From the sequence record NC_010583.1: 64,000 nt of DNA, one strand, 5' to 3'. Origin of the DNA: Escherichia phage Eps7. This document shows, one piece after another, positions 1,545 to 64,000 of the stretch. The notes below the pieces were generated by a model that was not told the DNA's origin, did not search any database, and saw only the letters and a program-made list of their open reading frames with translations. The position numbers and the translations under genes were made by a program. Numbering within the stretch: the stretch's first letter is position 1; each line of letters starts with the position of its first letter.

Positions 1545-1592
1545 AAATATTATAACAAGAAATTAAGCATCAAGCAAGTACATTTTTAGCGA
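1545..1592 (-). promoter_or_regulatory. T5-type early promoter cassette (sigma70-like)
   Basis: On minus strand: A-rich UP, -35 CTTGCT, 17-nt spacer, -10 TATAAT, conserved leader ATTTATATAAATTGATGAGGAG. Confidence 0.55.
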
Positions 1593-5271: not shown

Positions 5272-5416
5272 ATATTTGAATGAAAAATAAGTCGGTTAAA
5301 CTCAAGGTGGAATATTTCAGGAAATCCTGACTTTACCCCTAAAAGCAACTCGCTTAGTTACTTCTCATTCAGATATGTTTTCCAAATTAGATAACTATTA
5401 TATCAAGTTTTGAAGG

Positions 5417-5452
5417 ACTGAGCAAGTCAAATTTTAAAGAACTTGCTCAGTG
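5417..5452 (-). terminator. intrinsic terminator hairpin (11-bp stem)
   Basis: actgagcaagt ... acttgctcagt inverted repeat immediately downstream of the 5462-5737 gene. Confidence 0.45.
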
Positions 5453-5737: not shown

Positions 5738-5774
5738 TCGTTAACTCCTTCATCAATTTATATAACTATTATAG

Positions 5775-14612: not shown

Positions 14613-15385
14613 AATTATTTTCCTTTTGTTGTTCTCTCAAATTTATGAATATATTATACAGAATTTGGAGCTGAAAGCAAATCAAATTTTGATTTTTTTC
14701 GATCATGATGGCTACACAATAACTTTCAACTAAAGCATCGAATGCGGGATCATGTTTCACTGGATAGATTCCATAACGAATGGTATCCATCTTTTCCATT
14801 TTAGCTTTTGCCCAGCTAGCACCTTCGGCTTCTAGATCTTTATAGCTATAACCAGCTTGCATCCACTGATTACGGAAAGATCGAACGTTACCTAAGTTCC
14901 AGAATTTCCACGGAACTATTTCTTCATGGGTTCCGGCATGGAACGTATTTGCAGAGTAGATTGTCATATCAAACTCTGGGCCATTGCCGTAATACAGAGC
15001 ATTATCTCCTAGAGACAATTCCATAATGTTCTGAGCCATAGAGAAGGCAGCATAATTAGAGCCTACGTCATTAGTGCAGTGATGCTTACCATCACGGAAG
15101 GCAATCAGTTTAGGATTACGACCATTTAGAGCCTCCATAATATGGAGCGCAGATGGACTGTTTTTTAGCTTGATCCATCCAGAATGCAATAGTAGAGGCA
15201 GTTACCTTAGCACCCGCATTAAGCTGATCTTGAACGTCTAGAGTAACGAATACCAGATCAGGATCTTTATCAATTCCGTGCATCGCTACAAAAGCGAAAG
15301 AAGGCATTGCAATATGAGTAGTACCGCAATTTCCTGGAGTACCTAGAGATTCAATGTCCAGCATACCAAAGGGCTTGAATTTCAT
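14599..15385 (-). CDS. DEDDh-family 3'-5' exonuclease-like protein (frameshifted at T6 tract 15161-15166)
   Basis: Exo I-like LDIESLG, later H-x4-D (HDPAFD); two ORFs join when the A6 run on the coding strand is shortened to A5. Confidence 0.5.
14650..14695 (-). promoter_or_regulatory. T5-type early promoter cassette
   Basis: RC: -35 TTTGCT, -10 TATAAT, conserved leader. Confidence 0.5.
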
Positions 15386-18682: not shown

Positions 18683-19537
18683 TTACACCGTAAATGGATA
18701 TGCAATAGCAGGATGGTGTTCATAGCCACGAACAGTAAAATCATCCTTACTTACCCACGTTAATACATCATCCAAAGTTCTAATATTTGGATTGATTTCT
18801 AAAGTAGGAGGTGCAAAAGGTTCACGATCGAATTGCTTGTGCTCCATCAGAACATTATACTGATCTTCATAGATATGAAGATTAATAATCTTTTGACGAG
18901 CAATACCTGGCTTAAGACCTGTAATCTGTGCCATAATAGCTAGAAGTGCATAGCATTGCACCATATTAAATACTTGGCCCAGCAAGAAATCATTAGACCT
19001 CTGGAAAGAGTTTAGGTATAGTGTATCACCTAAAATAGAGAATTGATGGGTATGCATACACGGACGTAGGCATCCTTTACGAAATTCCCCACGGGTTCCA
19101 AAAGTTAAAATTTCTCCACGATCGTCAATCCCTCTTTTCAAATTATGATAGACTTTGGCTAACTGATCAAATACCATACCATCAGAATTAGTCCAATGAC
19201 GTCCTTGAACACCATAGACTCGTCCCATATCATCCTCGCCTTTACGGAATGGATTACCTAGCCAGGCAATATTTTCATTTGCATTAGCATTCCATGTATT
19301 AACACCAATAGCGCGGAATTGTGCTGCTGAGTCGTACCCACGGAGATATCCGATCATTTCCATTATTGCTTGTTTAGCAAATGCTTTACGAGTAGTTACT
19401 AGCGGCAGTTCTCCTGCTCCTACGTTAAAGGTAAAGTCTGCATCAATAATGGTTAGGCAACGAACCCCTGTTCTAGGATTCGTTACCCATACACCCTCTT
19501 CAAGAATACGTTTTCCAGTTTCAATATATTGCTTCAT
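18683..19537 (-). CDS. thyA: thymidylate synthase
   Basis: Conserved ThyA blocks: PLVTTRK, active-site region [11 protein letters not shown] (PCH), [14 protein letters not shown] and YALLAIMAQ. Confidence 0.8.
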
Positions 19538-20062
19538 TTAAATATCACCAATTCTTGTAAGAATGAAAGCGTTTTATCTGCATTCTGTCCTGCCACATAG
19601 TCCATTCTAGTTGCCATTGAATTATAAGTAATATGATGATGCAGATGTACATCAGCAGATAATGGTGTGGCTGAAGTAATAGTAGAGATATACGCCATAT
19701 CTAGATGATTTTTTGACATACATTTCAAGAAGCAGAGTTGCTCCCCCTAATACTACAGTTACCTCTTCCTTGAGAAAATCAGGCAGACGGTATCCAATGT
19801 TGCTTATGCGTGTAGCTGATCTTATAGAGTTCGGTAGTGGTCTATTTGCATAAATAAATAGGTCAGAATCTCCTAGTATTCTTTTTTGCAGAGTCTCAGG
19901 GAATGCTAACCAAGTTCCTGCTCCTACAATAATATTGTCAGGTGCCAGAGAATCCAATGTAGCATAGAAGATATCTAGTTCTTCTTTGAAAGAACCCCAG
20001 GGGAGCTTACCATTGAGGCCGAACTCCCCATTCGGCCCAGTTGCATAGATTGCTGCTATCAT
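19534..20062 (-). CDS. frd: dihydrofolate reductase (frameshifted at T6 tract 19709-19714)
   Basis: N-terminal [22 protein letters not shown] and [10 protein letters not shown]; continues ...[12 protein letters not shown] in the next frame when the A6 run is read as A5. Confidence 0.6.
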
Positions 20063-21811: not shown

Positions 21812-24204
21812 TTATAATTGACAACCACCAGATGCGCATCCAGCAGCAGCTTCCTCTCCTGCACCTCCACCATTTTCAGTGTTGAAGTTTGCATAATAAA
21901 AGGTTTTCCAACCGTACTTAACAGCAGTCATAAAGTCACGAACTACTACTGGGCCGGGAATGATTTCATTCTCGAACTTGGTGTAGTCATAGTACATATT
22001 CGTACTGATAGACTGGCTGAAGAATTTCTGCATGGTTGCTACCCATTTGATCCACTCGATACGATCTACATCATAAGCCAGTTTATAGCTCATTAATGTA
22101 TCCCAATCAGTTGCACCTGGAGCAATTGCAATTACTTTATTAACTGCACTACCCTTGATAGATACGATCTTACGGGGCGGTTCGATAGAGTTAGTAACAC
22201 CTAGCAGTACAGAGGAACTTTCACCTGGCATCTGAGCAGTCAGAACAGAGTTGCGCATACCATATTTCAGAATATCTGCACGCAGAGATTCCCAATCCAT
22301 TTCTAGACCTACAGTTACCAGTTCATCAACAGTTTTCTTGTACGTGTCGATTACCAGAGTTCCTTGCGAAGGCTTAGTACGATTAAACCAGTCACATGCA
22401 CCTTGTTCTTTAGCCAGACGTACAGAGGCTTTATGTAGGAAGTAGGACAGCTTTTCAGCTTCACGGTGAATCCAGTTACGTGCTTCAACACCTTCGTAAG
22501 CCAAACCTTCTGCTGCCATTGCACCTGCTGCGTTCATCAGACCAATACCAACGTTACGACGTTTCTTAGCCGTGTACTTCCATAGTTGGGAATGGGTAAT
22601 CCTGAATCTCGATGATTGTATCAACGAATTTCAGAAGGATGTAGCAAGTTTTCTCCCATTCAGCCAGAGATTCCATGCGGCCTAGTACAACACCACCTAA
22701 GTTACACAGAGATACTTCACCAATATCTTCTGGACGCATATCGTCTAACTGATCTTGGGTTTTATACAGTTCCGTAACGTGATGGAATGGACGGGTGGCT
22801 GAGTAATTCAACACAAAAGGGTTGGTCATACGAATCGGGTCAAGGAAGTTACCATGACGGTTAGATTCACCAATGTGATGAGCATACATACGCCCTGTTT
22901 CCATACGGATACGTAACCAAGTATCTAGGATTTCTTTTGCAGAGATTCTAGGAGCTGCTGGAATTGTTTTTCCTTCGTGGTCGATCTTTGTAAGAGAAGC
23001 CACACGTTTCTCCGCTGCCACGTAGATTTCTTCAAACTTAGCCTCATCTTCACCATAAAACGCTTCATGAACTTCTGGTGCGTAGAAGTAGGACATTAGC
23101 GTAATATCTTCGTTTTTCAGGTAACGTTTTAACAGAAGGTTGTTAAAGCTCAGAGAATAATCCATCTTATCGATTTTATTCTCGTCTGTAGCACGTTGCT
23201 GCTTAACCTGCATCAACTGAATGATTTCAGGATCGAAGTATGGATAAGACACAGTAGCAGAACCGCCACGGGTTTGCTGAGTGTTAGCTTTTACTGATCG
23301 GTCAATGTGTCGATAATATGGCAGTTTTCCGGAATGCGGGAATGCCCCATTTCGCACCGGATCAGCAATTGATCGGCTTTCAAGATGATACCCGATTCCC
23401 GCTCTGGCTGCGACCATTTTGAAGACGATGTGCTCGGCTGTGTCGATTGAATCCAGCGTGTCAGTGGAATCCACGAGACAGCAACTAGCAAATCCACGGT
23501 CACTAGAGCGCAGGCCAACCAGTGGCGGCGTAGGAACGTTGATTTTGTGGAGCGACATTGCATTGTAGAGGTCGATTGCATCTAGGATTGTCCAGTTAGG
23601 TTGAGATAACATCGCCATTGCCATACCCATGTAGGCAAACTGCGGGGTTTCATAAATTTCACCAGTTGCAATATTACGACGAGAATACTTGTCGAAGAAC
23701 TGTTTCAGTCCACCACTGGTGAATAAACGATCGCGATCATGATCAATAACTTGGTTCAGAGCGTCAAACTGATCATCGCTAATCCATGCACTCATGTCTT
23801 CCCAGCGCCAACACGAACCATATGATCGTGGAAGAAACGCAGAGAAGGGGTTCAAAGGAATCATATAGGCGTTTACGCATCTGCGCAAGACGTAATTCCT
23901 TTGCTACAGTATCATATGCTGGGTTGTCTTTGATAAGACCTTCAGCGGCTTTAATTAACACATCTTGGAGGGTATCGGAATCTACAACACCTTTTGGTAG
24001 ATTTTTCTGGGCAGACATAACGACGGCAGACCAACTTACGTCAGTTGCTTTACATGCCCATGCAGCCCAATCATTGAGTTTTTCAGGAGCAAAGTCCTGA
24101 ACAGTACCGTCACGTTTAATTACTTTTTCAATACTATGGCTCATTGGGGTTTCCTTTTTGTAGTTATCAGGATTTAGGAAATATTCTACTTTGTTTTGGG
24201 TCAT
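21812..24204 (-). CDS. nrdA: ribonucleotide reductase class Ia alpha subunit (three apparent frameshifts)
   Basis: ATP-cone N-terminus, catalytic core ...VIDHDRD..., ...RRNVGIGLMNAAG..., C-terminal CxxxGGC tail; fragments join at G4 tract 23847-23850 (restores FEPP), at 23799-23800 and near 22575-22581. Confidence 0.75.
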
Positions 24205-27462: not shown

Positions 27463-27829
27463 ATGAAGAACGTAAGACATCTTAAATATCGCTTAATTTA
27501 CAACGGACGTATGGAAACAGAAGATCTAGCTCAGCTAGCGATCAATTCAGATGAAGTTACGGTTCGTGCTTTATCTATTGAGAAGCTGCGTGCTTCTTAC
27601 GAAAATCGTATTATGGAACTGGAGGAGAAACTGTATGGACTTCTTGAATCAGAATCTAAAAAATAATCTAGAAAACATGCTTATGGAGCAGTGGAACTCT
27701 GGGTATAATGCTGGGGTGGCTACTTGTATTGCGGGGTTGGATATGCTTATTAAGCAAGAAAAGGTACGTCCAGAAGAAGCAATTCTACTCCAAAATATCA
27801 TCGAAGGATTCAAGCAAGGAATCGTATAA
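27463..27829 (+). CDS. hypothetical protein (about 121 aa; apparent frameshift at A6 tract 27658-27663)
   Basis: ORFs 27463-27666 and 27551-27829 join in-frame if the A6 run is read as A5. Confidence 0.4.
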
Positions 27830-28643
27830 TGCGTAGACTAATCGTTGTTAGTGGTGCAGGTTTGAGTGTAGATAGTGGTGTTCGTGCTTTCCGTACTGAT
27901 ACTGCTAGTGGTAAAGCGTTGTGGGATGATTATGACCTAGAAGAGGTATGTAATATTCATGCCTTTCGTGGTAATTTTACCATAAAACTCATATGTTTTA
28001 CAACAAACGTCGTGAAGAGTTACAAACTGTTGAACCTAACCTAGCTCATTTGCGTATTGGTGAATGGTATAAACGGTATCCAAATCAAGTGGTAAACCTT
28101 ACTACCAATGTTGATGATCTAATCGAACGTGCTGGAGTGCCGAGAGAAGATATACTCCATATTCATGGATATCTGAAAGAAATTATTGTAGAGCATGCGT
28201 TCGACCAGACACGTGATGTTATTGATATTGGGTATAGTTCTATTGATCCAGATGACTTTGATTGGGTTAAACCTAACGTTATCTTCTTTGGTGAGGTTGC
28301 TCCTGCCTATAAAACAATGTATGAGGTTTTTGATGGTATCACCAGTCATGATATGATCATCATTGTTGGGTGCTCTAACCAAGTAATTAACTTCTACTGG
28401 GAGCTATTTCCTGTTCTGAATCTTACTGCTGCAAAACTTATGGTAGTTAACTATTACGATAGTGCAGTAGCTATGGAACCAGGCTATCAGGGCATGACTC
28501 GTAGTGAAATGTATCAGTTAGAAGAACGTGGTATTCCTTACTGGAGTAAAGGTGCTGTGGATGCCTTTAGTGATCCCGATTTTATTGCTCGTGTGGAAGC
28601 TCATCTAGAAGGTAAACCCTATGTTCAACAAAAGCATGTGTGA
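27829..28643 (+). CDS. Sir2 (sirtuin)-like NAD-dependent protein (frameshifted at A4 tract 27984-27987)
   Basis: N-terminal GAGLSVDSGVRAFR (compare sirtuin GAGIS.ESGI..FR), central NVDDLIERAG...ILHIHG, later IIIVGCSN; two ORFs in adjacent frames. Confidence 0.55.
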
Positions 28644-33931: not shown

Positions 33932-33960
33932 TTGCTTTCAGGAAAAATTTTCTGTATAAT
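33932..33960 (+). promoter_or_regulatory. T5-type promoter (TTGCTT, 17 nt, TATAAT)
   Basis: Conserved leader ...ATAAATTTGAGAGAGGAGTTTAAAT then ATG at 33992. Confidence 0.6.
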
Positions 33961-35823: not shown

Positions 35824-36132
35824 ATGAGCGATCAGGTAAATCAAAACTATGAAGGACACATTGACGACCAGTCCATCATGCTTTGGGAGAAGGACGGGGA
35901 ACAAGTAAGACTAACCGTATCTGAATTTCGTGGGAATCTATACATGGGAATTCGTTACTGGCTCCAAGATATTACTGGAGAGTGGTTTCCAACGAAATCC
36001 GGCTTCTCTTTTCCTTATACCCTAGAAACTACATCACAGCTATTTTACGCTTTTACGCAAATCCTCAGTGAATCCGAGGTCTTGCATGAAGTACAGAAAC
36101 GAGCTGAAGAACTCAAAGCCAAGAATGCCTAG
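35824..36132 (+). CDS. hypothetical protein (102 aa)
   Basis: ORF followed by terminator. Confidence 0.55.
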   Translation: MSDQVNQNYEGHIDDQSIMLWEKDGEQVRLTVSEFRGNLYMGIRYWLQDITGEWFPTKSGFSFPYTLETTSQLFYAFTQILSESEVLHEVQKRAEELKAKNA

Positions 36133-36146
36133 TTCTTGGCTTTTTC
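36118..36146 (+). terminator. intrinsic terminator
   Basis: gccaagaa-tgcctag-ttcttggc then TTTTTCTTT. Confidence 0.55.
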
Positions 36147-36159
36147 TTTATAAATGTAC

Positions 36160-36188
36160 TTGCTTTCGACTCAGTTTTGTTATATAAT
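36160..36188 (+). promoter_or_regulatory. T5-type promoter (TTGCTT, 17 nt, TATAAT)
   Basis: Leader ATTTATATAAATTGATGAGAGATATAAATAA then ATG at 36220. Confidence 0.6.
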
Positions 36189-36219
36189 ATTTATATAAAT
36201 TGATGAGAGATATAAATAA

Positions 36220-37191
36220 ATGACTAATGTAAAAGAATTTATTAAACGCTGTCAAGAAGCATATTATCAAGGTATGTCTTTAATCTCTGACGAAGAATAT
36301 GATCGTCTGATTAAAAGATTCCCACTAGAGGAAGAAATCGGACCGAAAGGTGATATTCCTCATTTGTATCGTATGTATTCTTTGCAGAAAGTCTATTACG
36401 GTCGCGGTGATAAAGCTCCATTCAATCCATTAGGTCAGGTTGAAACTGATAAGTTAGATGGTTGTGCGATTTCTCTATTATATATTAATGGTGAATTTGT
36501 TCAAGCGTTAACTCGTGGTAACGGTATTCTAGGGAATGATGTAACGCATAATGTTAAAATGCTGAACATCCCCAAAACTATTTCCCAAAAAGTACCAACT
36601 CAAATCACTGGTGAAGTTCTCATTACTAAAGAAGTAGAGAACAAACGTAACTACGCTTCGGGTGCTATTAACCTGAAAGACAGCGATGATTTCATCCAAC
36701 GTATTGGTGAAGGTGGTTTAATCTTCGTTGCATACGGTATCCAGTGTTCAGCGGAAACAGTCGGTATTACAGAAGCCTATTTAAAAGATATGCTTTGGCT
36801 AGAGAATGAGAACTTCTTGACAGTTGTTAATGTTCGTTCCTTTTTTAAATGGATTCCGACGGACGGTAAAGTTGTTCGTATTAACGACAACAATAAATTC
36901 TTCCGTGAAGGTTGGACTAATAAATTTCCTCGTGGTGCATTTGCTATTAAAGAGGATGAAGAAGGCGAAATTACCACACTTGTTAAAGTTGAATGGCAAG
37001 TAGGGGCTTCTGGTAAAGTAACTCCAGTTGGTTATTTCGAACCGGTGATTATTGATGATGCCACAATCGTTAAAGCAACTCTTAATAACGTTGATTATAT
37101 TAACGCTCTCGATTTAGAGATCGGTTGCCAGATTCGAGTGATTCGTGCTGGTGGTGTAATCCCTTGTATAGTAGAGCGAGTATACGACTAA
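36220..37191 (+). CDS. ligA: NAD-dependent DNA ligase, N-terminal subunit (adenylation + OB domains)
   Basis: Adenylation motif I ETDKLDGC (KxDG), LigA-like N-terminus ...EEYDRL...; 323 aa ending before the Zn-finger/HhH/BRCT part. Confidence 0.75.
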   Translation: MTNVKEFIKRCQEAYYQGMSLISDEEYDRLIKRFPLEEEIGPKGDIPHLYRMYSLQKVYYGRGDKAPFNPLGQVETDKLDGCAISLLYINGEFVQALTRGNGILGNDVTHNVKMLNIPKTISQKVPTQITGEVLITKEVENKRNYASGAINLKDSDDFIQRIGEGGLIFVAYGIQCSAETVGITEAYLKDMLWLENENFLTVVNVRSFFKWIPTDGKVVRINDNNKFFREGWTNKFPRGAFAIKEDEEGEITTLVKVEWQVGASGKVTPVGYFEPVIIDDATIVKATLNNVDYINALDLEIGCQIRVIRAGGVIPCIVERVYD

Positions 37192-37239
37192 TTCGTAACC
37201 CTTTGCTACCCGTTTACCATGTCGGAATTATAAAGTGGT

Positions 37240-37268
37240 TATTGACATTTTCGCCGCTTAGGTATATA
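37240..37268 (+). promoter_or_regulatory. sigma70-like promoter (TTGACA, 17 nt, TATACT) between ligase halves
   Basis: Near-consensus hexamers; followed by an 8-codon micro-ORF (MARVSKVS). Confidence 0.5.
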
Positions 37269-37334
37269 CTATTATCATTCAGTTGAGGGATAGAAAGTTA
37301 TGGCGAGGGTAAGCAAAGTTAGTTAAAATTGTAG

Positions 37335-37363
37335 TTGCTAAATGCTTAAATACTTGCTATAAT
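37335..37363 (+). promoter_or_regulatory. T5-type promoter (TTGCTA, 17 nt, TATAAT) for ligase C-terminal subunit
   Basis: Conserved leader ATTTATATAAATTGATAAGGAAGAAATTTG then ATG. Confidence 0.55.
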
Positions 37364-37393
37364 ATTTATATAAATTGATAAGGAAGAAATTTG

Positions 37394-38172
37394 ATGAAAA
37401 TCGAAATTCCAACACAATGTCCCTCTTGTGGTTCTAAGCTAGATCTTGTCAACGGGCAATTATTCTGTAGGAATAAGTCCAACTGTCCAGCGCAATCAAG
37501 TAAGTTAATCGAGAACTTCTGCACAAAAATGAAGTTAAAGGGCTTTGGCCCGAAAACTATTGAGAAGCTGGAGCTGACTAAGATCTCAGAACTGTTTTAC
37601 CTGACCGAAGAAGATTTGGTCGGAGCTGTGGGTAGCAAGGTTGCCGCTAAATTGATTAGCGAGTTAAATACAAGGTTCGCGGAGACATTGACTTTGGTTC
37701 AGTTCTCGGTTCTTTAGGAATTCCTCTTATTGGAGAGGTTGCAGCAAAGAAACTGTCCCAAAATTGCACTAGCTTCCACGATGTGAAGGCTGACGGCAAG
37801 GCTGGAGAAAATTACAAAACCTGGCTAAATTCCCCACAAGGCAAGGATGTTATTGAATTACCGTGGAAATTCTCAACTGGTATCCGAGGTGCTAAAGCTG
37901 ACATCATCATTACAGATGATTTAGTTGCCCAGCCAAATGGAATCACGGTCTGTATTACCGGATCTTTGCAAGATTTTGCAAATCGAACGGATGCAACAAA
38001 CTATTTAGAAAGTCTAGGGTATACGGTTAAGAAGTCCGTTACCAAAGACGTCAAATACCTAATCTGTGAGGATGAATCAAAACGTTCTTCCTCATCTTAT
38101 AAGAAAGCCGAAACGAATGGGATAGAAATCCTGTCGATTAAAGAACTATTGGAGAAAAATAATAATGTCTAA
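37394..38172 (+). CDS. ligB: NAD-dependent DNA ligase, C-terminal subunit (Zn finger, HhH, BRCT); frameshifted at T3 tract 37713-37715
   Basis: Zn-finger CPSCGSKL...[10 protein letters not shown], HhH ([14 protein letters not shown]), BRCT-like VCITGSL...; a T4 tract gives ...[13 protein letters not shown] matching LigA ...FLYALGIREVGE. Confidence 0.65.
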
Positions 38173-38932
38173 ACTGAACTGGAACGTAGAAGGTGTAACC
38201 GAGTCTCTGAAAGCAAAAGCCACTGCTCTGGGTGTTGCTGTAATCTCTCAAGAACAAGTAGCTGCTATCGCTGCTGAACTGGCTACCGAGACTGGTAAAG
38301 ACGTTACCGCTCGCTCTGTTGGCTCTAAGCTGCGTAAAGAAGGTTTCGAAGTACAGAAAGCTAACGAAGTACAGAAATCCCCGTGGACTCCTGAGCAGGA
38401 AGCTGAACTGGTTGATTTCCTGAACGCTCATGCGGGTCAGTATACTTACGCTGAAATCGCTGCTGCTGTAGCTGGTGGTCAGTTCGGTGCTAAGCAGGTT
38501 CAGGGTAAGATCCTGAGTCTGGAAATGACTGCTTCTGTTAAGCCAACCGAAAAAGCTGCTGCTGTTCGTTCCTTCACTCCTGACGAAGAAACTGATTTCG
38601 TTAATCAGGTTGTTGCTGGTGCTACTATTGAAGCTATCGCTGCTCACTTCGGTCGCAATATTAAGCAGATCCGTGGTAAAGCTCTGAGTCTGCTTCGTGA
38701 AGGTCGTATCGCTGCTATGCCGGTACAGGAAACTTCAAGTGCTAAAACTCGTGAAGATCTGTTAGAAGGTCTGGATCTGGCTAACATGACTGTTGCTGAG
38801 ATCGCTGAGAAAACTGGTAAGTCTGAGCGCGGTGTTAAATCTATGCTGTCTCGTCGTGGTCTGGTTGCTAAGGACTATGATGGTGCCGCTAAGCGTGCTA
38901 AACTGGATGCAAAAGCTGCGGCTGCTGAATAA
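38165..38932 (+). CDS. putative DNA-binding protein with four internal repeats (255 aa)
   Basis: Four repeats of about 45 aa (...ARSVGSKLRKEG, ...KQVQGKILSLE, ...KQIRGKALSLLREG, ...ERGVKSMLSRRG); highly optimised codon usage. Confidence 0.5.
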   Translation: MSKLNWNVEGVTESLKAKATALGVAVISQEQVAAIAAELATETGKDVTARSVGSKLRKEGFEVQKANEVQKSPWTPEQEAELVDFLNAHAGQYTYAEIAAAVAGGQFGAKQVQGKILSLEMTASVKPTEKAAAVRSFTPDEETDFVNQVVAGATIEAIAAHFGRNIKQIRGKALSLLREGRIAAMPVQETSSAKTREDLLEGLDLANMTVAEIAEKTGKSERGVKSMLSRRGLVAKDYDGAAKRAKLDAKAAAAE

Positions 38933-52264: not shown

Positions 52265-55215
52265 TTATGGTAGTTCTGTAATTGTTGGAGCATTTCCGTT
52301 AAGCATTGATTTTACAAGGTTTTTCAGTTCATATAACTCATTGCGTAATACGTTAATTTCCTCCTGTTGATTATCAATCTTTGCTTTTTGCTCTTTGAAT
52401 GCGTTAACAAGAAGTGCGACAACACCATTATAGTTAATGCCTTTGATTGCCTCGCCTTTTGGGTCTAGCTGACCATCGTTATTCAAAGAATGAACCGCTT
52501 CCGGCAAAACCCTTTCAACATCTTGTGCGATCAATCCAGCCTCAATACTATAAACGCTGTTTTCATCTTCAATTAGATTGTTGCGCTTGTAGTAAGTATA
52601 ACCAGTTAGATAATCAATTTTGTCGGATGCCGTTTCGATCTCTTTTAGATGTGCTTTTAATCTAATGTCAGACCTGCTAACCCAATTTGATGCGCTACCA
52701 TTTCCAGCACTATCAAAAATAAAGTCAGCGCCCTTAACATAAAGATGTGTTTCAGCGCCGCCAGAAGTCCACGGAACAACATCCATGCCAGCTATCCAAT
52801 CTTTCCCCAATAAACAGATTTAAATATGGCAACCGCAGAATCAAATCCAATGTGCTCAACAAGCAATCCAGACGCACGACTACGCCAGTCGGCAAATGAA
52901 CCACCCTCAACTTGACCAGCAATAAGAGCGTTTGGATCACCGCGCCTAACTCCATTTACATACATACCCCTTGCGTTATCATCAACATAAGATGATATGA
53001 CCCTGTAAGTGTTTATTCCTGATGGAGTCCATGCAAATATTCTCGCTGAATCAGCAAACGCGCTTATGTGACCATCACGATCCCATTTAAGACCTGAATC
53101 ATGATCCCCAATTGCTATAGAGTAATCACCAAGAGCCGATTGAGCATCCGGACTTAATAACATCAATTGCCTATCAGATCTTGCTATCCTGTACCATCCA
53201 CCCCAAGAGCCAGCACTGCAAATGATACCCCATTTATTACCGTTCATTGCGGTTGCAACAATATTTCCATACTCAACATGACCGTTTGCATTTTTACCGT
53301 GAACATGCAATTCATACATCCACCAACCAGAGGCTTCAGGTGGTTGATATGTAACAAGTTCTCCGCTTGAGTAATAACCGCTTTCTGCGTATGTTGACAT
53401 AAACCCAAGAATGTTTGAATTATTAGGAATAATAATTGCTTGACCACCAACAGGAGTATTTAAGTTCTTTCTTGCTCCAACTTCAGTATTAGATCCAGTG
53501 CCGCCAGCATCAATTGAAAGAGGAATCCATCTTCCAGTTTCATCAGTCCAAACACCCCACGCCGCATCAGGTCTAATTGTGATTCGATAAGGTGAGTTAC
53601 TCCCTGGTGCATACATCATAGTTTCTGTTTCTGTTTGCTTTAAACGATCAATGCCAAAGTTTATTTTTGCGCCCTCAACGTTTTCAGCACCAGTACCGCC
53701 AGCACCAATAGAAAGCGCAGATGTGCTGTTATTGTCATTACGCGCAACGCGCCATTCCCCATTGTTAGCGATCCGTAATTCATAAGTCCATGCAGGATTA
53801 CGAAAAGAATTATAAGCGCCAGCATATTGATCTTTTACAGAATTAACAGCCTCAACTTTTAGCGCCTCCCTTGCAAGGTCTTTGTTTGCAAGATCATTAA
53901 GGTTCTGATCCTTCTTTAACGACGCTTGCATAACCTGTTCTGCTGATGCAGCCGCTGTCTCCGCTCTATCTGCTGCACTGGTGGCATTAGTAGCTTTCTC
54001 TCCTGCTATTGTAGCGCTACCAGCGGCCTCCAGGGCCTTGTCTGTTGCTGTCGTTGCAGCAGTAGTGGCGGTATTTTTAAATACCTCTGCTTCGTCTCTG
54101 TAGCCTTTGGTTGTGGTCATCGCTTGCGTAGCTGTATTCGCACTACCTGATGCACTTTGCTGAGCTAGCTTAGCAGCGTCTTCACTAGCTTTTGAGTTAA
54201 TTTCACTAGTCTTTGTATTAGTTTCTGAGTTTTTTGCTGCTAATGCTGATGTGGAGGCTTGTGCAGCGAATGCTTCTGCTTCATCCCTGAATCCTTTGGA
54301 GTCAGAAGCAGAGGCAGCGGAATCAGCAGCATTAGTCTCACTAGTTTTTGCTGCTGCTGCATATGCTGCTGCATTAGTCTCACTAGTTTTTGCATTAGTC
54401 TCACTAGTTTTTGCATTAATCTCACTAGTTTTTGCTGCAGCTGATGATTCTATAGCAGTAGTTTCACTAATTTTTGCTGCAGCTGATGATTCTGCAGCTT
54501 TAGTAGCGGATGCAGCAGATTGAGAAGCAGAAATAGCAGACTGAGAAGCAGAAGCTTCAGAAGCTTCAGCAGAAATAGCAGATTCATTCTCAGAATTCTT
54601 AGCATTAAGTTCTGAAGTCTTAGCAGCTATCTCGGAGTCTTTTGCAGTAGTAGCGTATTCTCCCGCCTCTGTAGCAGAACCAGCAGCAGCAATAGCCTGA
54701 TTGGTAGACTCAGTAGCAGATGTAGCAGCATTTTGCTCAGAAGTAGCAGCAGCAGTCTTAGCAGCCTCAGCGTCCTTCTTAGCTTGTTCAGCTAATAGAC
54801 GACTCTGTTCAGCATTTTGTGCAGCAAGTTCAGCAGAATCACGGAATCCTTTGGATTCCTCAGCTGACGTAGCAGAGGCATCAGCACTATCTTTAGATAA
54901 ACCAGCTTGTCTCTCCGCTTCAGTAGCAGAAGCAGCAGATTGAGTTGCAGAAGTTTCTGAAGAGTTAGCGTAAATTGCAGCTAGGTTCTCCGAGTCCTTA
55001 GCATTTGTTTCAGATTCTTTTGCTGCAATTTCAGAATCTTTTGCTGCCGCAGCAGAAGCAGCAGAGGCCTCAACAGCCCCTGTTAGTTCACTAGCAGTAA
55101 TAGAACTAATAGAAGTACCTAAAACTACCGTATACTTAGGATATTTACTAGCAGTAGTTGTAGTGTCATCTATGTTCAGAATCTGCTGTACAATAATTTT
55201 AGTTTTAAGTGCCAT
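52265..55215 (-). CDS. ltf: L-shaped tail fibre protein with C-terminal intramolecular chaperone (peptidase S74-like) domain; frameshift at C4 tract 52805-52808
   Basis: N-terminal repetitive AK.SE.NAK.SE fibre shaft, central beta-rich region, C-terminal chaperone motifs (SDIRLKAHLKEI...DYLTGYTYYKRN...SIEAGLIAQDVERVLPEAV); two ORFs join across the tract. Confidence 0.7.
54371..54500. repeat. in-frame tandem DNA repeats inside tail-fibre gene
   Basis: 21-nt unit gcattagtctcactagttttt x3 (54371-54433), then tgctgcagctgatgattct x2; encodes repeated TSETNAK-type peptide units. Confidence 0.7.
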
Positions 55216-55642: not shown

Positions 55643-57701
55643 TTACCTTATATGGATATACCCACTATTTAGGTCTATCTTCATCTTGTAGTATGCTTCA
55701 GGGTTTCCTGATAACGCAGCATTTCTATCGTAGATTATATTAACACCTATTTGTGATAAGAAGGCATTTCCTGCCACAATCTTATCAGCAGTTACAGTTC
55801 CATTAACAATCATGTTGCCATGAAGAACCATTGCAGGGTTAATCCATCCAGCCCCGTTCCATTGACGGGTAAATGCTGTTTGTGGAGCATTACTGTTAAA
55901 TTGTGTTAGAACATCGTATTTAACCGGAGGTTTTCCAAAGTTATTTTGAAAGAATGCGTTAGCTTGTCCATCATCCCAACCGCCTAATCCAGGAATACCC
56001 ATGGAGTACATCCCAGGACCACGCTGTCCATCATGTCCTATAGTACCTTCAGTACCACTCCATTGAACTACATCAGACCAGCTAGTACCTTCAAGAAGTT
56101 TGTTAGTAACTGGATCAAGTGTACCTGTAGTCGCATAGATATTTTGTGTCATATCTGTACGATTAGGTGGAGTTTTTGACCAACCAGGAGGTGGATAATC
56201 TTGTTCTAACGGTTTGGCCGGTAAAGATGTTGCTAACTTATAAACAAATACTGTTTGCTTACCTTGTAAACCAGTTCCAATATCTACGTCACCATTTGGT
56301 GTTCCAATTACTACACCACTAGAAATACGCAGAGTAGTACCATCATAACGTATCCATTGTGTAGCATTACCAATGTCTAACTTAGCTTTGGCAGAGGTAT
56401 TATCCATACCCATCCAAATACCAGAGTTATTATCTCCCCAAGATTTACCTTGAGTATAAATTGCTGGATTATCTTTACCAGATAAGTTAGTCATGATAAA
56501 GTTCGCAGCATTAATATCTCTAGTAATTACTTTACCATCGACGTTAACAACACGATTTATAGGGTCGAAAGAAATAGGTGCTTTTCCTTCTTCATCTAGC
56601 AGACCAATGTTAATAGCACCAGTAGCTGCATCAATTAAGAATGTCTGTCTCCAGATTTCTCCATCTTTCATACTACCCTTAATAAAGGCATAGTTAACAT
56701 CAATACCAGTCTCATTGACAAAACTATTATCTAGAGGAGTATCTTCATTCAATATAAATGTTACAGGAGCTGATTCTGTTATATCTTGCTTATTTGGTCC
56801 CCAGGCAATTGATGAAACCTTAAAGGTATGTTCAACTTTCCATGGGAATGATATAATCGTTGCAGCTCTAGCAGCACCCACGTTTATCTTTTGAGCTTTA
56901 GCCCATCCGGTTTTAGCGTATTCCTCGGAGTTTATATAAGTAACCAAGAACTCACGAACGTTAGCACCAGCACCACGTTCCCATTCCCACTCAATTCTAA
57001 CATCATATCGTTCTTTACCATCAGCAATTCGTGCAGCTTTAAAAACAATATCGATAGGTGCAGTAGGTGGAACAAAGTTATAAGCTACAGTTAGAATATT
57101 AGGAAACTCGTAGTATCCTGAAGAATCAACTGTAACACCATCAGGCATAGTTACTTGACCAGATATTCTGATCTTATAGTCTCCGATAGGAACTCCACCA
57201 AATTTAATAGTAGAACCTAAAGCCCCAATATAATATTTAGTCCAAGGACTGTCTTCAGTGGCTGTACTTTTTAACTCAATAGTACAGTAACTTGCTTCAC
57301 CAGTTGTTTCCACAACAACTATCGGTGCGCCCACCCCAACATCCACAGGTTCTGACTCAGATCTTGCTGCGACAATTATTGGCTTCTCTTTTGTTTTAAA
57401 GTTAGTTTCATTAGAGAGGTTAATACCAATTTTTGCATTTAAAAGTTCTGAGTCAATAATCGAGTCATAAAAAAGCTCCCTGAACCTGATAGGTAGTTGA
57501 GGGAGTTAAATTATTGATCATAACAAAGAAAGTGTCGATTCCAGTGAAATCTCTTCTATCCACTTCTTCGCCAAGTTTAAGCCAGAATGATCTACCGATA
57601 ACATCGTAGTCGGTATAGATAGAATGCTGGATATACGCCATCGTATACCCAGTCATAATACTATTTAAGACCATCTTGGCTGGTGCATTATTCGAAATCA
57701 T
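55643..57701 (-). CDS. pb4: baseplate/central fibre protein pb4-like (frameshifted at A6 tract 57469-57474)
   Basis: Combined length about 685 aa (T5 pb4 is about 688); 78-aa and 567-aa ORFs join when the T6 run on the coding strand is read as T5. Confidence 0.65.
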
Positions 57702-61269: not shown

Positions 61270-64000
61270 TTAAGAATTACCAAGTGATTTCAGGGTGGTT
61301 CCATTCTCATTAAGAGCCTGTTCCACGGCATCCCTGAAAGCAGCACTGTTACTCGAAGCAAAGTCTCGGAAGCTAGCCGCATCCATCGTACTGATGTTCA
61401 GCACAATAGGCCTACCCGATGTACCCTTTGAAGATCCTTTGAGTTCATCAGTAGGAGTAGCCTTCATCGGAACCATAGGAGTGATTACTTCGGTACCATG
61501 CTCACCCATCTGGTAACTAACTCCAGGGTACATATTACCACCTTCTGCACGAGGTACGAAAGAGTTCGCATTACCAATCCCTTGATCTCCTCGAATATAA
61601 GAAAGTTCTCCTGCGTTAGCCGACATAGAAACGTCTACGTTCTTCTGGCGCTCTCCAAGAGACAAGTATTGAGCTGTCTCAGTACCCGAGTCTCCAATAG
61701 AAGACATACCAGATGCAGAGGATGCTTGTGCAAGAGACAATGCACCTGCAACACCTGCTGCAATCATAAGAGGGATAGACCACGGGTAAGGAACAGCTGT
61801 TGCTGCTTGCATCACCGCTACTGCCGTCTGAATTATGATCTGCTTCTTAGCTGCGTCTTGCTGGATCTTAACCTTTTCCGCTTCCAGTTTCTTGAGCTTA
61901 GCTTTAGATGCTTCGGATTTACCGTCACGTTTTTGCTCTGCTGCAATAGCCTGGTCAATAGCTGATACTTGATTACTTACTCCCATAGCAATCATTGAAG
62001 AAACCATCTGCATACCTGCCGCCACAGTGCTAACAGTATCTAAAGATCCCTGAGAGAACTGCATCATGGCATTAGTAAGATTTCCCATACTCTGGCCAAC
62101 TTCCGTTGCTTGGCTATTTAATGCTCCAAGTTTAGAAATAGCTTCGTCGTAAGAGGCCATCTGGTTCTGCATATCAGCATACTTCTTATCATCCCCAGAT
62201 AAACCAGTCGTAGGAGTATAAGTAGCTCCAACAGAAGAACCTACCTGTTGCTGCATCTGAGCATTACGTTGTGCTGTTAAAGCCGACATCTGAGCCCTTG
62301 TCTTGGCTATTTCAGCATTCCAGCGCATTTGCTCGTTAGCATTACCTTTGGTAAGTTCTTTCATCTTGGTATAAAAATCTAACTGCATTTCCATTTTTTT
62401 GCATTTCCCCTGCCAGAGGGAACATGGAAGTTAGAGTATTTTCAAAGGCTTCTTGCCTTTTACTGGTCATTTCAGCTTGCTGGTCTTGGCGGAATTTCCA
62501 GATTTCACGCCCTATCTGTGCTTGAGCACGTCTTGATTGTTCAGCTTCTTTCTGCTTATCAGCTTGTTTTGTATACCATTCGTACTTCTCTTTTTCAATA
62601 GTCAATTCAAGATTTAACTGTGCTAGACGATACTGAGTATCTGTCATAGTACGGTTATTTAAGAGAGCTATTTCACGATCAACACCAAGAATCTTATCCG
62701 TATAGTCCTTAACTTTCTTCTGAGCTTCCATGTCCTGGTTAGTAATTTTGATACGTTCTAACTGAACCTTAGCTATTTCATTCTCAATTGCCTTGTTACC
62801 TTTGTTAGTTTCTAGGACACGCTTAAGAGCTGCTTCCTGTTCTTCTAACTGTTGGATTTCTAGACGTCTACCCGCTTCCTGTGCTTTCTCTTTATCCTTG
62901 GTCTGGTTGTACACTTCGGCAATCTTTTGCTGAACTTCTAGCTGATTTTTAGTCTCATTACTAGTTAATTTTACATAACCAGCAAGAGCTTGTGAGGCAG
63001 TCTTCATCTCACTAAGAGTATTATACCCTAAGTTCAGACTCTTAACATACTCATCAGCATTTTTACCAGTGCCGGCAGATAGAGACTCAATAGTCTTAAT
63101 CGTATCCGATAGGGATGCACTAGTTTTAGCCGCAGTATTAGTATTTTCGGCAATGTTCTGGATATCGTTAGCTAAATCACTAGCAGTTTTCTTAGCCTGA
63201 TCATATGCTTTCTGCTGTTCCGTCAGTCCTTTCAGAGTTGCGGAGTTAAAGTCATAAACCGCATCAGGGTCATTCATATCCTTCTGCAGATTAATCTGCT
63301 TCTGAAATTCTGGATTAGTCTTAGCAGCCGCAGCACCAGCAGCTTGATACGCAGATTTCCAAGCATTAAGGTTTTCAGTAGAGTCATCAACTTCTTTACC
63401 TAACCTTGCTACCTGTAGTCCCATAGCTGCGGTTTCTTCTACAAACTTTTTGTTAGCTTCGGAAGAACCTATGCGCACTCCCCCTACTTCAAATCCCCCA
63501 GCAGCTAATCCAACAGGCATTCCCTCACCCACTAATCTAATAGCGGCAGCAGTACTAGCATCTGCTTGGGACATACGTTTATCAAACTCAGTCTTTAGTT
63601 TATTACGCTTATCCAGAGACTCTTTATACATATCAAGAGCTTTATTATATCCTTCCTCGGAAGCGGAAAGACTTAAAGCTACAGCACCAACGTTAGTTGG
63701 GTCAATCTGACGGTTAGTTTCTTCTTGTGCTCTAGCAGCAGAAGCCGAGATAGATGCTTGAGAAGTATAGAATACTGCGTTAATAGAATCAATTACCGGC
63801 CCTAAATACTTAGCAGCAGCCTGTTGAACCTTTCTTAGTGCAGCATCAGCGTTAGCAGCAAACTGTTCCCATGGAGTTGCACGGAGTACGTCATCCAAGT
63901 AGCCGAAACGTTTAGTAGATTCAGCAATTACTGCGTTAGCATATGCTTGTTGCTTTTGGAAAGTGGAAAGACTATTGACGTTATATGTGATACCTGTGTT
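61270..64000 (-). CDS. pb2: tail tape measure protein (T5 pb2-like), N-terminus beyond window; frameshift at T7 tract 62364-62370
   Basis: Ala/Gln-rich coiled-coil, frame open to window edge; ORFs 62342-63898 and 61270-62394 join if the A7 run is read as A6 (...AGEMQKMEMQLDF...). Confidence 0.75.

Follow-up and report, generated by a model that had tools for sequence, protein, structure and literature searches.

The locus at positions 36220–38172 of the window, the 64,000-nucleotide stretch of Escherichia phage Eps7 (NC_010583.1) analysed here, is the two-gene NAD-dependent DNA ligase (ligA/ligB) carried by all T5-like phages, a system that is already known and annotated. It is very probable that we are looking at the standard two-subunit ligase of these phages, with a gap that marks the boundary between two transcription units and a break in ligB that is most likely an error in the record. 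Little of this is new: annotations of T5 have for a long time included the two genes and both promoters between them, every member of the family shows this arrangement, and the PDB contains a two-chain structure. The features of the locus are the following.

36115..36143, plus strand: terminator-like hairpin, a 12-pair stem followed by the T run TTCTTTATAA (scan)
36160..36188, plus strand: putative ligA promoter, TTGCTT-17-TATAAT, T5 early type
36220..37191, plus strand: ligA, catalytic subunit of 323 aa with a short putative domain Ia, an adenylation domain and an OB fold
37242..37270, plus strand: distal gap promoter, homologue of T5 P-K28b, TTGACA-17-TATACT, 11/12 (scan)
37300..37326, plus strand: 8-codon micro-ORF, MARVSKVS* (sequence)
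37335..37363, plus strand: proximal gap promoter, homologue of T5 P-K28a, TTGCTA-17-TATAAT, 10/12, with a TG extended –10 (scan)
37394..38172, plus strand: ligB, DNA-binding subunit with Zn finger, HhH and BRCT, 259 aa in relatives
38165..38932, plus strand: D5 DNA-binding protein gene (ORF list), annotated in SE24, S114 and T5

Ligase domains and the point of division

The ligase domains lie on two polypeptides, with the ligA stop codon at 37189–37191, a gap of 202 nt and the ligB start codon at 37394. LigA, whose sequence is identical to EPS7 protein ACB97573.1, matches the Pfam family DNA_ligase_aden (PF01653, E 3e-23), and its residues 252–321 form an OB fold (DNA_ligase_OB, PF03120, E 9e-22). 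K78 in the sequence DKLDG (KxDG motif) aligns with K115 of E. coli LigA and is invariant across five genera in the family alignment. The putative domain Ia motif, AYYxG...ISDEEYDRL, is invariant within the T5-type ligase family and aligns with residues 29–42 of the E. coli enzyme and 23–52 of the T. filiformis enzyme, at scores for domain Ia that are insignificant. In LigB the Zn-finger cysteines C9, C12, C25 and C31 are invariant in the family alignment and the BRCT domain matches PF00533 (E 3e-9 to 1e-8), while HHH_2 in the LigB of intact relatives reaches E 2.5e-4, which is below the Pfam cut-off.

Alignment with E. coli LigA (2OWO) pairs its residues 284–390 with LigA residues 214–320 and its residues 402–529 with LigB residues 3–122. 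The break therefore falls at the junction of the OB fold and the Zn finger, with nothing lost or duplicated. This mapping is one that a reading of the sequence alone (the sequence-only reading) had called for, and, together with the Pfam matches in both ORFs, it bears out the claim made there of two separate cistrons carrying contiguous LigA domains. Both T5-type termini are present, the LigA end ...GGVIPxIVERVYD and the LigB start MKIxIPTxCPxCGS. The phage pair, in which Ia is putative, has the domain order of the E. coli enzyme (Ia, adenylation, OB, Zn finger, HhH, BRCT) and keeps the KxDG motif, motif III (GEV), motif V (K244, equivalent to E. coli K314) and the four Zn-finger cysteines. 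It differs in being made of 323 + 259 aa, cut at about E. coli residues 393–400, where E. coli LigA is one chain of 671 aa, and in its shorter putative domain Ia and central adenylation region.

The two-chain structures 9HU3 and 9I5I in the PDB match both subunits, with E 2e-106 for chain A, named "DNA ligase (NAD(+))", and E 1e-79 for chain B, named "DNA ligase subunit B". A protein of Providencia phage PR1 shares 100% identity with chain B. The ligase of this phage (vB_PreS_PR1) belongs to the same two-subunit family and has the same split point as the one in the window, although the two are only 55–57% identical; the PR1 gap is 192 nt long, and its record annotates a terminator and a promoter there. 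Judging from this homologue, LigA and LigB would join non-covalently to form the equivalent of one LigA. LigA would supply domain Ia, which binds NMN, together with the OB fold and the nucleotidyl-transferase domain that carries the adenylated lysine, and LigB would supply the Zn finger, HhH and BRCT, the parts that complete the clamp around nicked DNA in single-chain bacterial LigA. The searchable literature yielded no paper accompanying 9HU3 and 9I5I and no enzymology of this or any other T5-type split ligase, so the case for heterodimer assembly and activity comes from the PDB deposit and from homology.

The closest well-annotated comparison is T5, whose ligA and ligB (AAU05253/AAU05254) are orthologous to the genes in the window, with 96% protein identity for LigA and 97% for LigB. 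The T5 gap is also 202 nt long and is 97.5% identical, its two promoters occupy the same positions, and the gene order D3...ligA-ligB-D5-helicase agrees as well. The difference lies in ligB, which is intact in T5 but interrupted in the window, where it lacks one T (37671/37672).

The gap and its promoters

Upstream of ligA, the terminator-like hairpin at 36115..36143 is predicted to close the preceding transcription unit just 5' of the ligA promoter. The –10 and leader of that putative promoter (36183–36204) match those of the ligB-proximal promoter at all 22 nt, and the T5 RefSeq record annotates a promoter at the homologous place. The scan confirmed the two promoters proposed earlier for the gap, the second at 37335–37363 and the first at 37242–37270 rather than at 37240. 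They correspond to the sites annotated as P-K28b and P-K28a in the T5 RefSeq record and are conserved across the family; we found no literature on P-K28a/b in the searchable sources. The ligB ribosome-binding site, AAGGAAG, lies within the leader of the proximal promoter. The exact pattern TTGCT-N18-TATAAT occurs at 19 sites in the window versus 0.18 expected, and both the proximal gap promoter and the ligA promoter are among them. Promoter-like sites in general number 6 in the region, which is not above the shuffled expectation of 5.9. A site of the form TTGAC(A/G)-17-TATA(C/A)T stands 116–133 nt 5' of ligB in the loci scanned from E. coli/Salmonella, Pectobacterium, Providencia, Proteus and Vibrio phages, and one is also found in a Klebsiella phage. 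The most divergent locus (L055) has a gap of 69 nt with a single promoter 12 nt before ligB.

Annotations of SE24, S114, T5 and PSa2 share the synteny within the early replication cluster, and the promoter scans place the tandem sigma-70 promoters directly 5' of ligB. The 202-nt gap would thus act as a boundary between transcription units: ligA, with a promoter of its own, would be the last gene of its unit, and ligB would head a ligB-D5-helicase-primase-polymerase unit driven by the tandem early promoters P-K28b and P-K28a. D5 begins inside ligB, with an 8-nt overlap at its ATG, and is therefore expected to be co-transcribed from the gap promoters. The scan revealed no terminator-like site between ligA and the gap promoters, which makes read-through from the ligA promoter into ligB likely. 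Hence the proposal that the two halves can be expressed independently holds in that ligB has its own putative promoters and could be transcribed without ligA; it does not hold as full separation, given the likely read-through and the fact that the gap promoters would also serve D5.

The 8-codon ORF MARVSKVS* exists, but its ATG is at 37300, not at 37298 as first reported, and outside close relatives it is not conserved as an ORF. The idea that it is a functional leader peptide or regulatory uORF controlling ligB expression is most improbable. An SD-like GAGGG lies 10 nt 5' of the ATG, T5 and Yersinia phage phiR2-01 both keep the ORF intact, the latter with two substitutions that are both synonymous, and in the fold predicted for the P-K28b leader (–26.1 kcal/mol, z = –3.7) the region of the ATG is paired with the proximal –10. 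This conservation is uninformative, however, because the whole 157-nt module in which the ORF lies is almost invariant, and the only variable site of the micro-ORF among 28 close relatives is non-synonymous. Furthermore, the Klebsiella phage has TTG in place of the ATG and a 2-nt insertion that changes the frame, Pectobacterium and Vibrio phages have no ORF at the equivalent place, and the leader fold is not reproduced in other genera. The gap of the Providencia phage holds a different ORF of 9 codons. Cross-genus comparison thus rules out a conserved peptide. The ATG lies 29 nt past the distal –10, a geometry shared with ligA (31 nt) and ligB (30 nt), and the micro-ORF is probably incidental or the vestige of a former gene start.

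The tandem-promoter module itself (37237–37393, ~157 nt, directly 5' of ligB) is kept in position and geometry from Salmonella to Vibrio phages. Only 8 of its 157 columns vary among 28 distinct close relatives, the figures for ligA being 20% at codon positions 1 and 2 and 68% at position 3. The module may, with low probability, be a regulatory element, either an operator or a structured leader, setting the LigB:LigA ratio or linking the ligB-D5 operon to early-gene shut-off. The leader fold in the window is significant, but a conserved leader RNA structure was rejected, as other genera fold differently (z –0.5 to –4.2, several not significant). The module also contains the inverted repeat AGCAA-N18-TTGCT; the –35 of the proximal promoter constitutes its 3' arm. 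The palindrome over this –35 scores z = –4.9 and –3.7 in some lineages but is at chance level here (z = +0.45), and we regard it as a low-probability lead only. Partial hairpins over the –35 are a frequent feature of the 19 promoters of the window because the A/T tracts upstream are symmetric.

The break in ligB and the genome record

Alignment with phages SE24 and S114 shows that one T is absent between 37671 and 37672, in the context AATAC[T]AAGG, which is not a homopolymer. The missing T leads to a premature TAG at 37715–37717, and ligB is consequently read as ORFs of 107 and 129 codons instead of an intact frame of about 250–260; the 129-aa C-terminal ORF is exactly EPS7 protein ACB97574.1. 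The frameshift had earlier been assigned to a T tract at 37713–37715, which is a mislocation. The TTT at this position directly precedes the premature stop codon and is the same in relatives, so variation in tract length is discarded as the cause. A programmed frameshift is likewise dismissed, since no slippery heptamer lies between the deletion and the stop codon and 431 of 431 relatives read straight through.

The missing T is most likely an error in the genome record, deposited in 2008, rather than biology. Phage PSa2 is 99% identical, and in a comparison with it 7 of 55 genes shift frame in the window, among them NrdA (with three shifts), DHFR and the genes of two large tail proteins (983 aa and 685 aa). 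The tape-measure gene is also split, and is not counted among the 55 because it runs off the compared stretch of PSa2. The same kind of break in NrdA, DHFR and tail genes of the window makes a sequence error the likely cause in ligB as well. We also weighed whether the frameshift is genuine, in which case the stock would have lost LigB and, with a crippled ligase, would rely on the NAD+-dependent LigA of the host. In hosts proficient for ligase, phages can do without ligases such as the product of T7 gene 1.3. The sequence around the deletion is non-repetitive, whereas several of the other indels in the window are in homopolymers, and it is the sole indel relative to PSa2 between 34871 and 45910. 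Against this, the deletion is found in none of 431 related records (0/431), and the same record breaks the tape measure, the 983-aa and 685-aa tail proteins and, three times, NrdA, which a viable phage is very unlikely to lose. A real loss of LigB is accordingly a very unlikely explanation, and a record error remains the preferred one. EPS7 is the type phage of Epseptimavirus, and since many single-base indels break conserved genes in its record, apparent pseudogenes there should not be taken as biology.

Age and origin of the division

The same ligase split is found in more than 900 phage records. In the T5 RefSeq record the genes are T5.116 (ligA) and T5.117 (ligB), separated by "promoter P-K 28b" and "promoter P-K 28a", and the annotation of the ligase locus in phage S114 matches that of T5, including P-K28b and P-K28a. 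In alignments the termini of the subunits are identical in position in T5, Providencia, Proteus and Vibrio phages. Each of the 42 IMG/VR loci is split (42/42), with gaps of 69–1374 nt. The best 120 clusters of LigA-half homologues all measure 210–337 aa, typically about 320 aa, and none comes near the length of a full-size LigA; accordingly, no close relative with a fused single chain occurs among these 120 clusters or the 42 IMG/VR loci. The split is common to relatives down to 40–50% protein identity. As judged from these comparisons, it is the invariant and ancient state of the whole T5-like family (Demerecviridae). A two-subunit LigA, described as unusual in the sequence-only reading, is so only in comparison with bacteria; within Demerecviridae it is family-wide, long annotated as subunits A and B and represented by a deposited two-chain structure.

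How the split arose is a separate matter. One possibility is that an ancestral single-chain ligase gene was interrupted at the OB/Zn linker by a mobile element, such as the gene of a free-standing homing endonuclease or a comparable cassette, and that the 202-nt gap is what remained after loss of the cargo. This scenario concerns origin only and is compatible with the account of a two-subunit T5-like ligase. The nrdA gene of Aeromonas phage Aeh1, split by mobE, is an example of a gene in pieces resulting from a free-standing homing endonuclease. The phage ligase can be likened to it as an essential enzyme of DNA metabolism encoded by two adjacent genes whose products would reassemble. The resemblance is closest in Salmonella phages SP3 and vB_Sen_SG_WM_RUS_R2, in which a GIY-YIG endonuclease gene directly 3' of ligA stands exactly between the ligase halves. 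The gap also acts as a slot for variable cargo in other phages: phage bastian has a 64-aa ORF there, a Proteus phage a gene with a NADAR domain, and Vibrio phages between one and three genes. In addition, the ATG of the micro-ORF is at the normal distance from a promoter, as if it were a vestigial gene start.

Other observations weaken this scenario. The endonuclease is present in only 2 of ~436 close relatives while the split reaches down to 40–50% identity, and the GIY-YIG gene is therefore better seen as a later invasion than as the cause of the split. Unlike the Aeh1-type case, the gap is free of an endonuclease in the window and in >99% of relatives, the split is ancient and family-wide, and the conserved content of the gap is the promoter module. 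The cargo domains differ between lineages or are absent, with no family common to lineages, and the most divergent locus, as described above, has only a short gap with a single promoter. No signature of an endonuclease, intron or intein is left in the gap of the window, and according to the ORF list no ORF longer than 8 codons lies wholly inside the 202-nt gap. Taken together, an origin by mobile-element insertion is possible but rather unlikely, and the earlier suggestion of an ancestral insertion, such as a lost homing endonuclease or intron, found no remnant in the gap.

Two related candidates were also eliminated. An intron or structured RNA in the gap was rejected, as the only Rfam match at E ≤ 1 over 35900–38400 is a sub-threshold sRNA inside ligA. 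A split intein was rejected because neither junction carries extra residues and the subunit ends abut contiguous LigA sequence. The conserved ligase gap appears both to separate transcription units and to take up variable cargo (GIY-YIG, NADAR and DprA-like), which may be of help in engineering T5-like phages or in studying the tolerance of gene fission.

Domains and split point of the two-gene ligase

The ORF at 36220-37191 encodes a 323-residue protein, LigA, that matches the adenylation (3e-23) and OB (9e-22) domains of NAD-dependent ligases and is identical to the EPS7 protein ACB97573.1. ligB starts at ATG 37394 and in relatives is 259 codons long, coding for a Zn finger with four cysteines, an HhH domain and a BRCT domain; in the window, the 129-residue product of the ORF at 37783-38169 is exactly ACB97574.1, "NAD-dependent DNA ligase subunit B [Escherichia phage Eps7]". 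With these exact protein matches, the window is very probably EPS7 DNA. When compared with solved structures, LigA residues 214-320 align with residues 284-390 of E. coli LigA (2OWO), the catalytic K115 of the E. coli enzyme corresponding to K78 of the phage protein, and LigB residues 3-122 align with 2OWO 402-529. The break thus falls at the OB/Zn-finger junction. Together with the domain matches, these alignments support the sequence-only reading of the two ORFs as contiguous LigA domains; the halves are adjoining pieces of one LigA, with no part absent or doubled.

The division into two genes is real, and the halves are separate in all 42 IMG/VR loci. A tblastn search with a LigB sequence matched 930 records from phages of Vibrio, Salmonella, Escherichia, Klebsiella, Proteus, Aeromonas, Serratia and Providencia. 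LigA-half homologues measure 210-337 aa in all of the best 120 clusters (to 47% identity), none of which holds a fused single-chain form, and the subunit termini are alike in all loci compared. In the T5 RefSeq entry the two genes appear as ligA (T5.116) and ligB (T5.117), and the features "promoter P-K 28b" and "promoter P-K 28a" lie between them; phage S114 has a matching annotation. PDB entries 9HU3 and 9I5I pair a chain named "DNA ligase (NAD(+))" with one named "DNA ligase subunit B", and chain B is identical to the Providencia phage PR1 protein; our literature search found no open paper on this structure or on the activity of the two-chain enzyme. The split is therefore old, family-wide and already known, and the two-gene ligase with promoters in its gap had been correctly described. 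Homology and the two-chain deposit suggest that LigA would be adenylated from NAD+ and that LigA and LigB would jointly clamp nicked DNA, as single-chain LigA does alone.

Promoters and conservation of the gap

Both promoters proposed for the gap are present as sequence features, the distal one corresponding to P-K 28b of T5 and the proximal one to P-K 28a.

Transcription signals around ligA and the gap, with further TTGCT-N18-TATAAT examples
1549-1577 (-), TTGCT-N18-TATAAT site
5397-5425 (-), TTGCT-N18-TATAAT site
33932-33960 (+), TTGCT-N18-TATAAT site
36115-36143, terminator-like hairpin preceding the ligA promoter
36160-36188 (+), ligA promoter, TTGCTT-17-TATAAT (also a TTGCT-N18-TATAAT site)
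37242-37270, distal gap promoter, TTGACA-17-TATACT
37335-37363, proximal gap promoter, TTGCTA-17-TATAAT

Because our scan found no terminator-like site from the end of ligA to the gap promoters, ligB probably also receives read-through from ligA. The ligB stop overlaps the start, at 38165, of D5 (a DNA-binding protein gene), which implies that the gap promoters head a ligB-D5-helicase-primase-polymerase unit. Exact TTGCT-N18-TATAAT sites occur 19 times in the window against 0.18 expected, every one oriented with the local genes, and early genes separated by a promoter are nothing special in this genome. The ligA and proximal gap promoters share an identical 22-nt -10/leader, TATAATATTTATATAAATTGAT, with exact copies at 1533 (-), 36183 and 37358 and copies with 1-3 mismatches at 5752, 13312 and 45952.

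Comparison of the phage sequences indicates that the conserved part of the gap is the promoter module (37237-37393), not the micro-ORF. A TTGAC(A/G)-17-TATA(C/A)T site ends 116-133 nt 5' of ligB in the enterobacterial, Pectobacterium, Providencia, Proteus and Vibrio loci scanned, and is also seen in the alignment of a Klebsiella phage; a TTGCnn-17-TATAAT site lies ~30 nt 5' of ligB in the scanned loci. This placement holds with or without extra genes on the ligA side of the module. In L055, the most divergent locus, the 69-nt gap has only one promoter, 12 nt 5' of ligB. In a set of 28 distinct close relatives the module has just 8 variable columns out of 157, compared with 20% of ligA codon positions 1 and 2 and 68% of position 3. 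The 8-codon ORF reported in the gap exists, but its ATG is at 37300, not 37298. Both ATG and frame are lost in the Klebsiella phage, and the Pectobacterium and Vibrio phages compared have no counterpart. The ATG lies 29 nt 3' of the distal -10, a spacing like that of ligA (31 nt) and ligB (30 nt), and the micro-ORF may be what is left of an earlier gene start.

The proximal -35 element is the 3' arm of an inverted repeat, AGCAA-N18-TTGCT (37312-37339). AGCAA-N16-19-TTGCT has five copies in the window where 0.58 would be expected, and at 37312 and 5421 (5421-5447) an arm forms the -35 of an early promoter. The exact repeat is found at 2 of the 19 window promoters; partial hairpins covering the -35 occur frequently among the 19, since the upstream A/T tracts are themselves symmetric. 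The window's own hairpin folds at chance level (z = +0.45). Equivalent hairpins are strong in some genera (z = -4.9, -3.7 and -2.0), and hairpins with compensating changes precede ligB in Pectobacterium, Providencia and Proteus phages. No comparable hairpin was seen at the distal promoter; the P-K28b leader fold exceeds shuffled controls (z = -3.7) and is not common to the other genera compared. We keep the repeat and the leader fold as a side lead only.

Genes inserted between the ligase halves

Of the 27 IMG/VR loci of the E. coli/Salmonella type, 26 have a 202-nt gap; the remaining one, Salmonella phage SP3, has 794 nt and an inserted GIY-YIG gene. Pectobacterium and Providencia phages have gaps of 189-192 nt. 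Longer ones occur in Proteus (344-801 nt) and Vibrio phages (683-1374 nt), and the gap of the most divergent contig is 69 nt.

Genes found in the ligA-ligB gap
L005 (SP3), 1564-2205, and PQ002169.1: GIY-YIG homing-endonuclease-like gene, 213 aa, overlapping the ligA stop codon
L053 (Proteus phage, IMG/VR 2974547928), 2153-2806: NADAR-domain protein (PF08719, 1.8e-31) between the ligase halves
L006, 2755-3973, and L046, L047 and L056 (Vibrio T5-like phages): three genes separating ligA from the ligB promoter module, gaps 1134-1374 nt

The Vibrio cargo comprises small ORFs and a DprA-like protein of ~186 aa, whose match is weak and sub-threshold (PF02481, E 0.004-0.008); phage bastian has a 64-aa ORF at the gap. 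The proposal that the split reflects a lost homing endonuclease is partly supported by the GIY-YIG gene (Pfam 1e-5) directly 3' of ligA in SP3 and one other phage. No intron, intein or endonuclease remnant was found at the split in the window. As about 2 of 436 close relatives carry the endonuclease while the split is family-wide, the gene seems to have arrived later, at a site that tolerates insertions.

The ligB break and other split genes

Over 36100-38300 the window and Salmonella phage SE24 share 99.9% identity. When it is aligned with SE24 and S114, the window lacks a single T between 37671 and 37672; the TTT at 37713-37715, where a T-tract frameshift had been placed, is the same in all three and only leads into the premature TAG. 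None of the 431 other records covering this stretch has the deletion, and the top identity among them, 99.2%, equals this one gap. The closest genome over 25 kb is Escherichia phage PSa2 (species Epseptimavirus EPS7; 99.0%), and in a gene-by-gene comparison 7 of 55 PSa2 proteins align to the window in two or more frames. The frame-changed genes include ligB and the first five listed here; the tape-measure gene is likewise split.

Frame changes relative to 99%-identical PSa2, ligB aside
14695-15385, metallopeptidase
19537-20062, dihydrofolate reductase
21815-24144, NrdA (three shifts)
52268-55215, 983-aa tail protein
55646-57701, 685-aa tail fibre protein
61270-63898, tape-measure gene

A viable phage is very unlikely to bear such a load in essential structural genes. 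Single-base indel errors appear to be numerous in this record, and on the economical interpretation the ligB break is one of them, probably a sequencing artefact. The indel lies outside any homopolymer, as a genuine mutation might, but its absence from all 431 records and the frame shifts in further conserved genes make a real deletion highly improbable.

The Sir2-like gene (27829-28643) also consists of two ORFs, of 71 and 216 aa. PSa2 splits it identically (SIRT5_1, SIRT5_2), and SE24 has one 852-nt gene; this split may be real, because it is common to two independently sequenced genomes. Two genes annotated in an SE24 stretch homologous to the left part of the window (locus L008, 5811-7545), for a nicotinamide mononucleotide transporter and a nicotinamide-nucleotide adenylyltransferase, lie in the early region that also contains the NAD-dependent ligase and the Sir2-like gene, which suggests that the phage provides its own NAD+.
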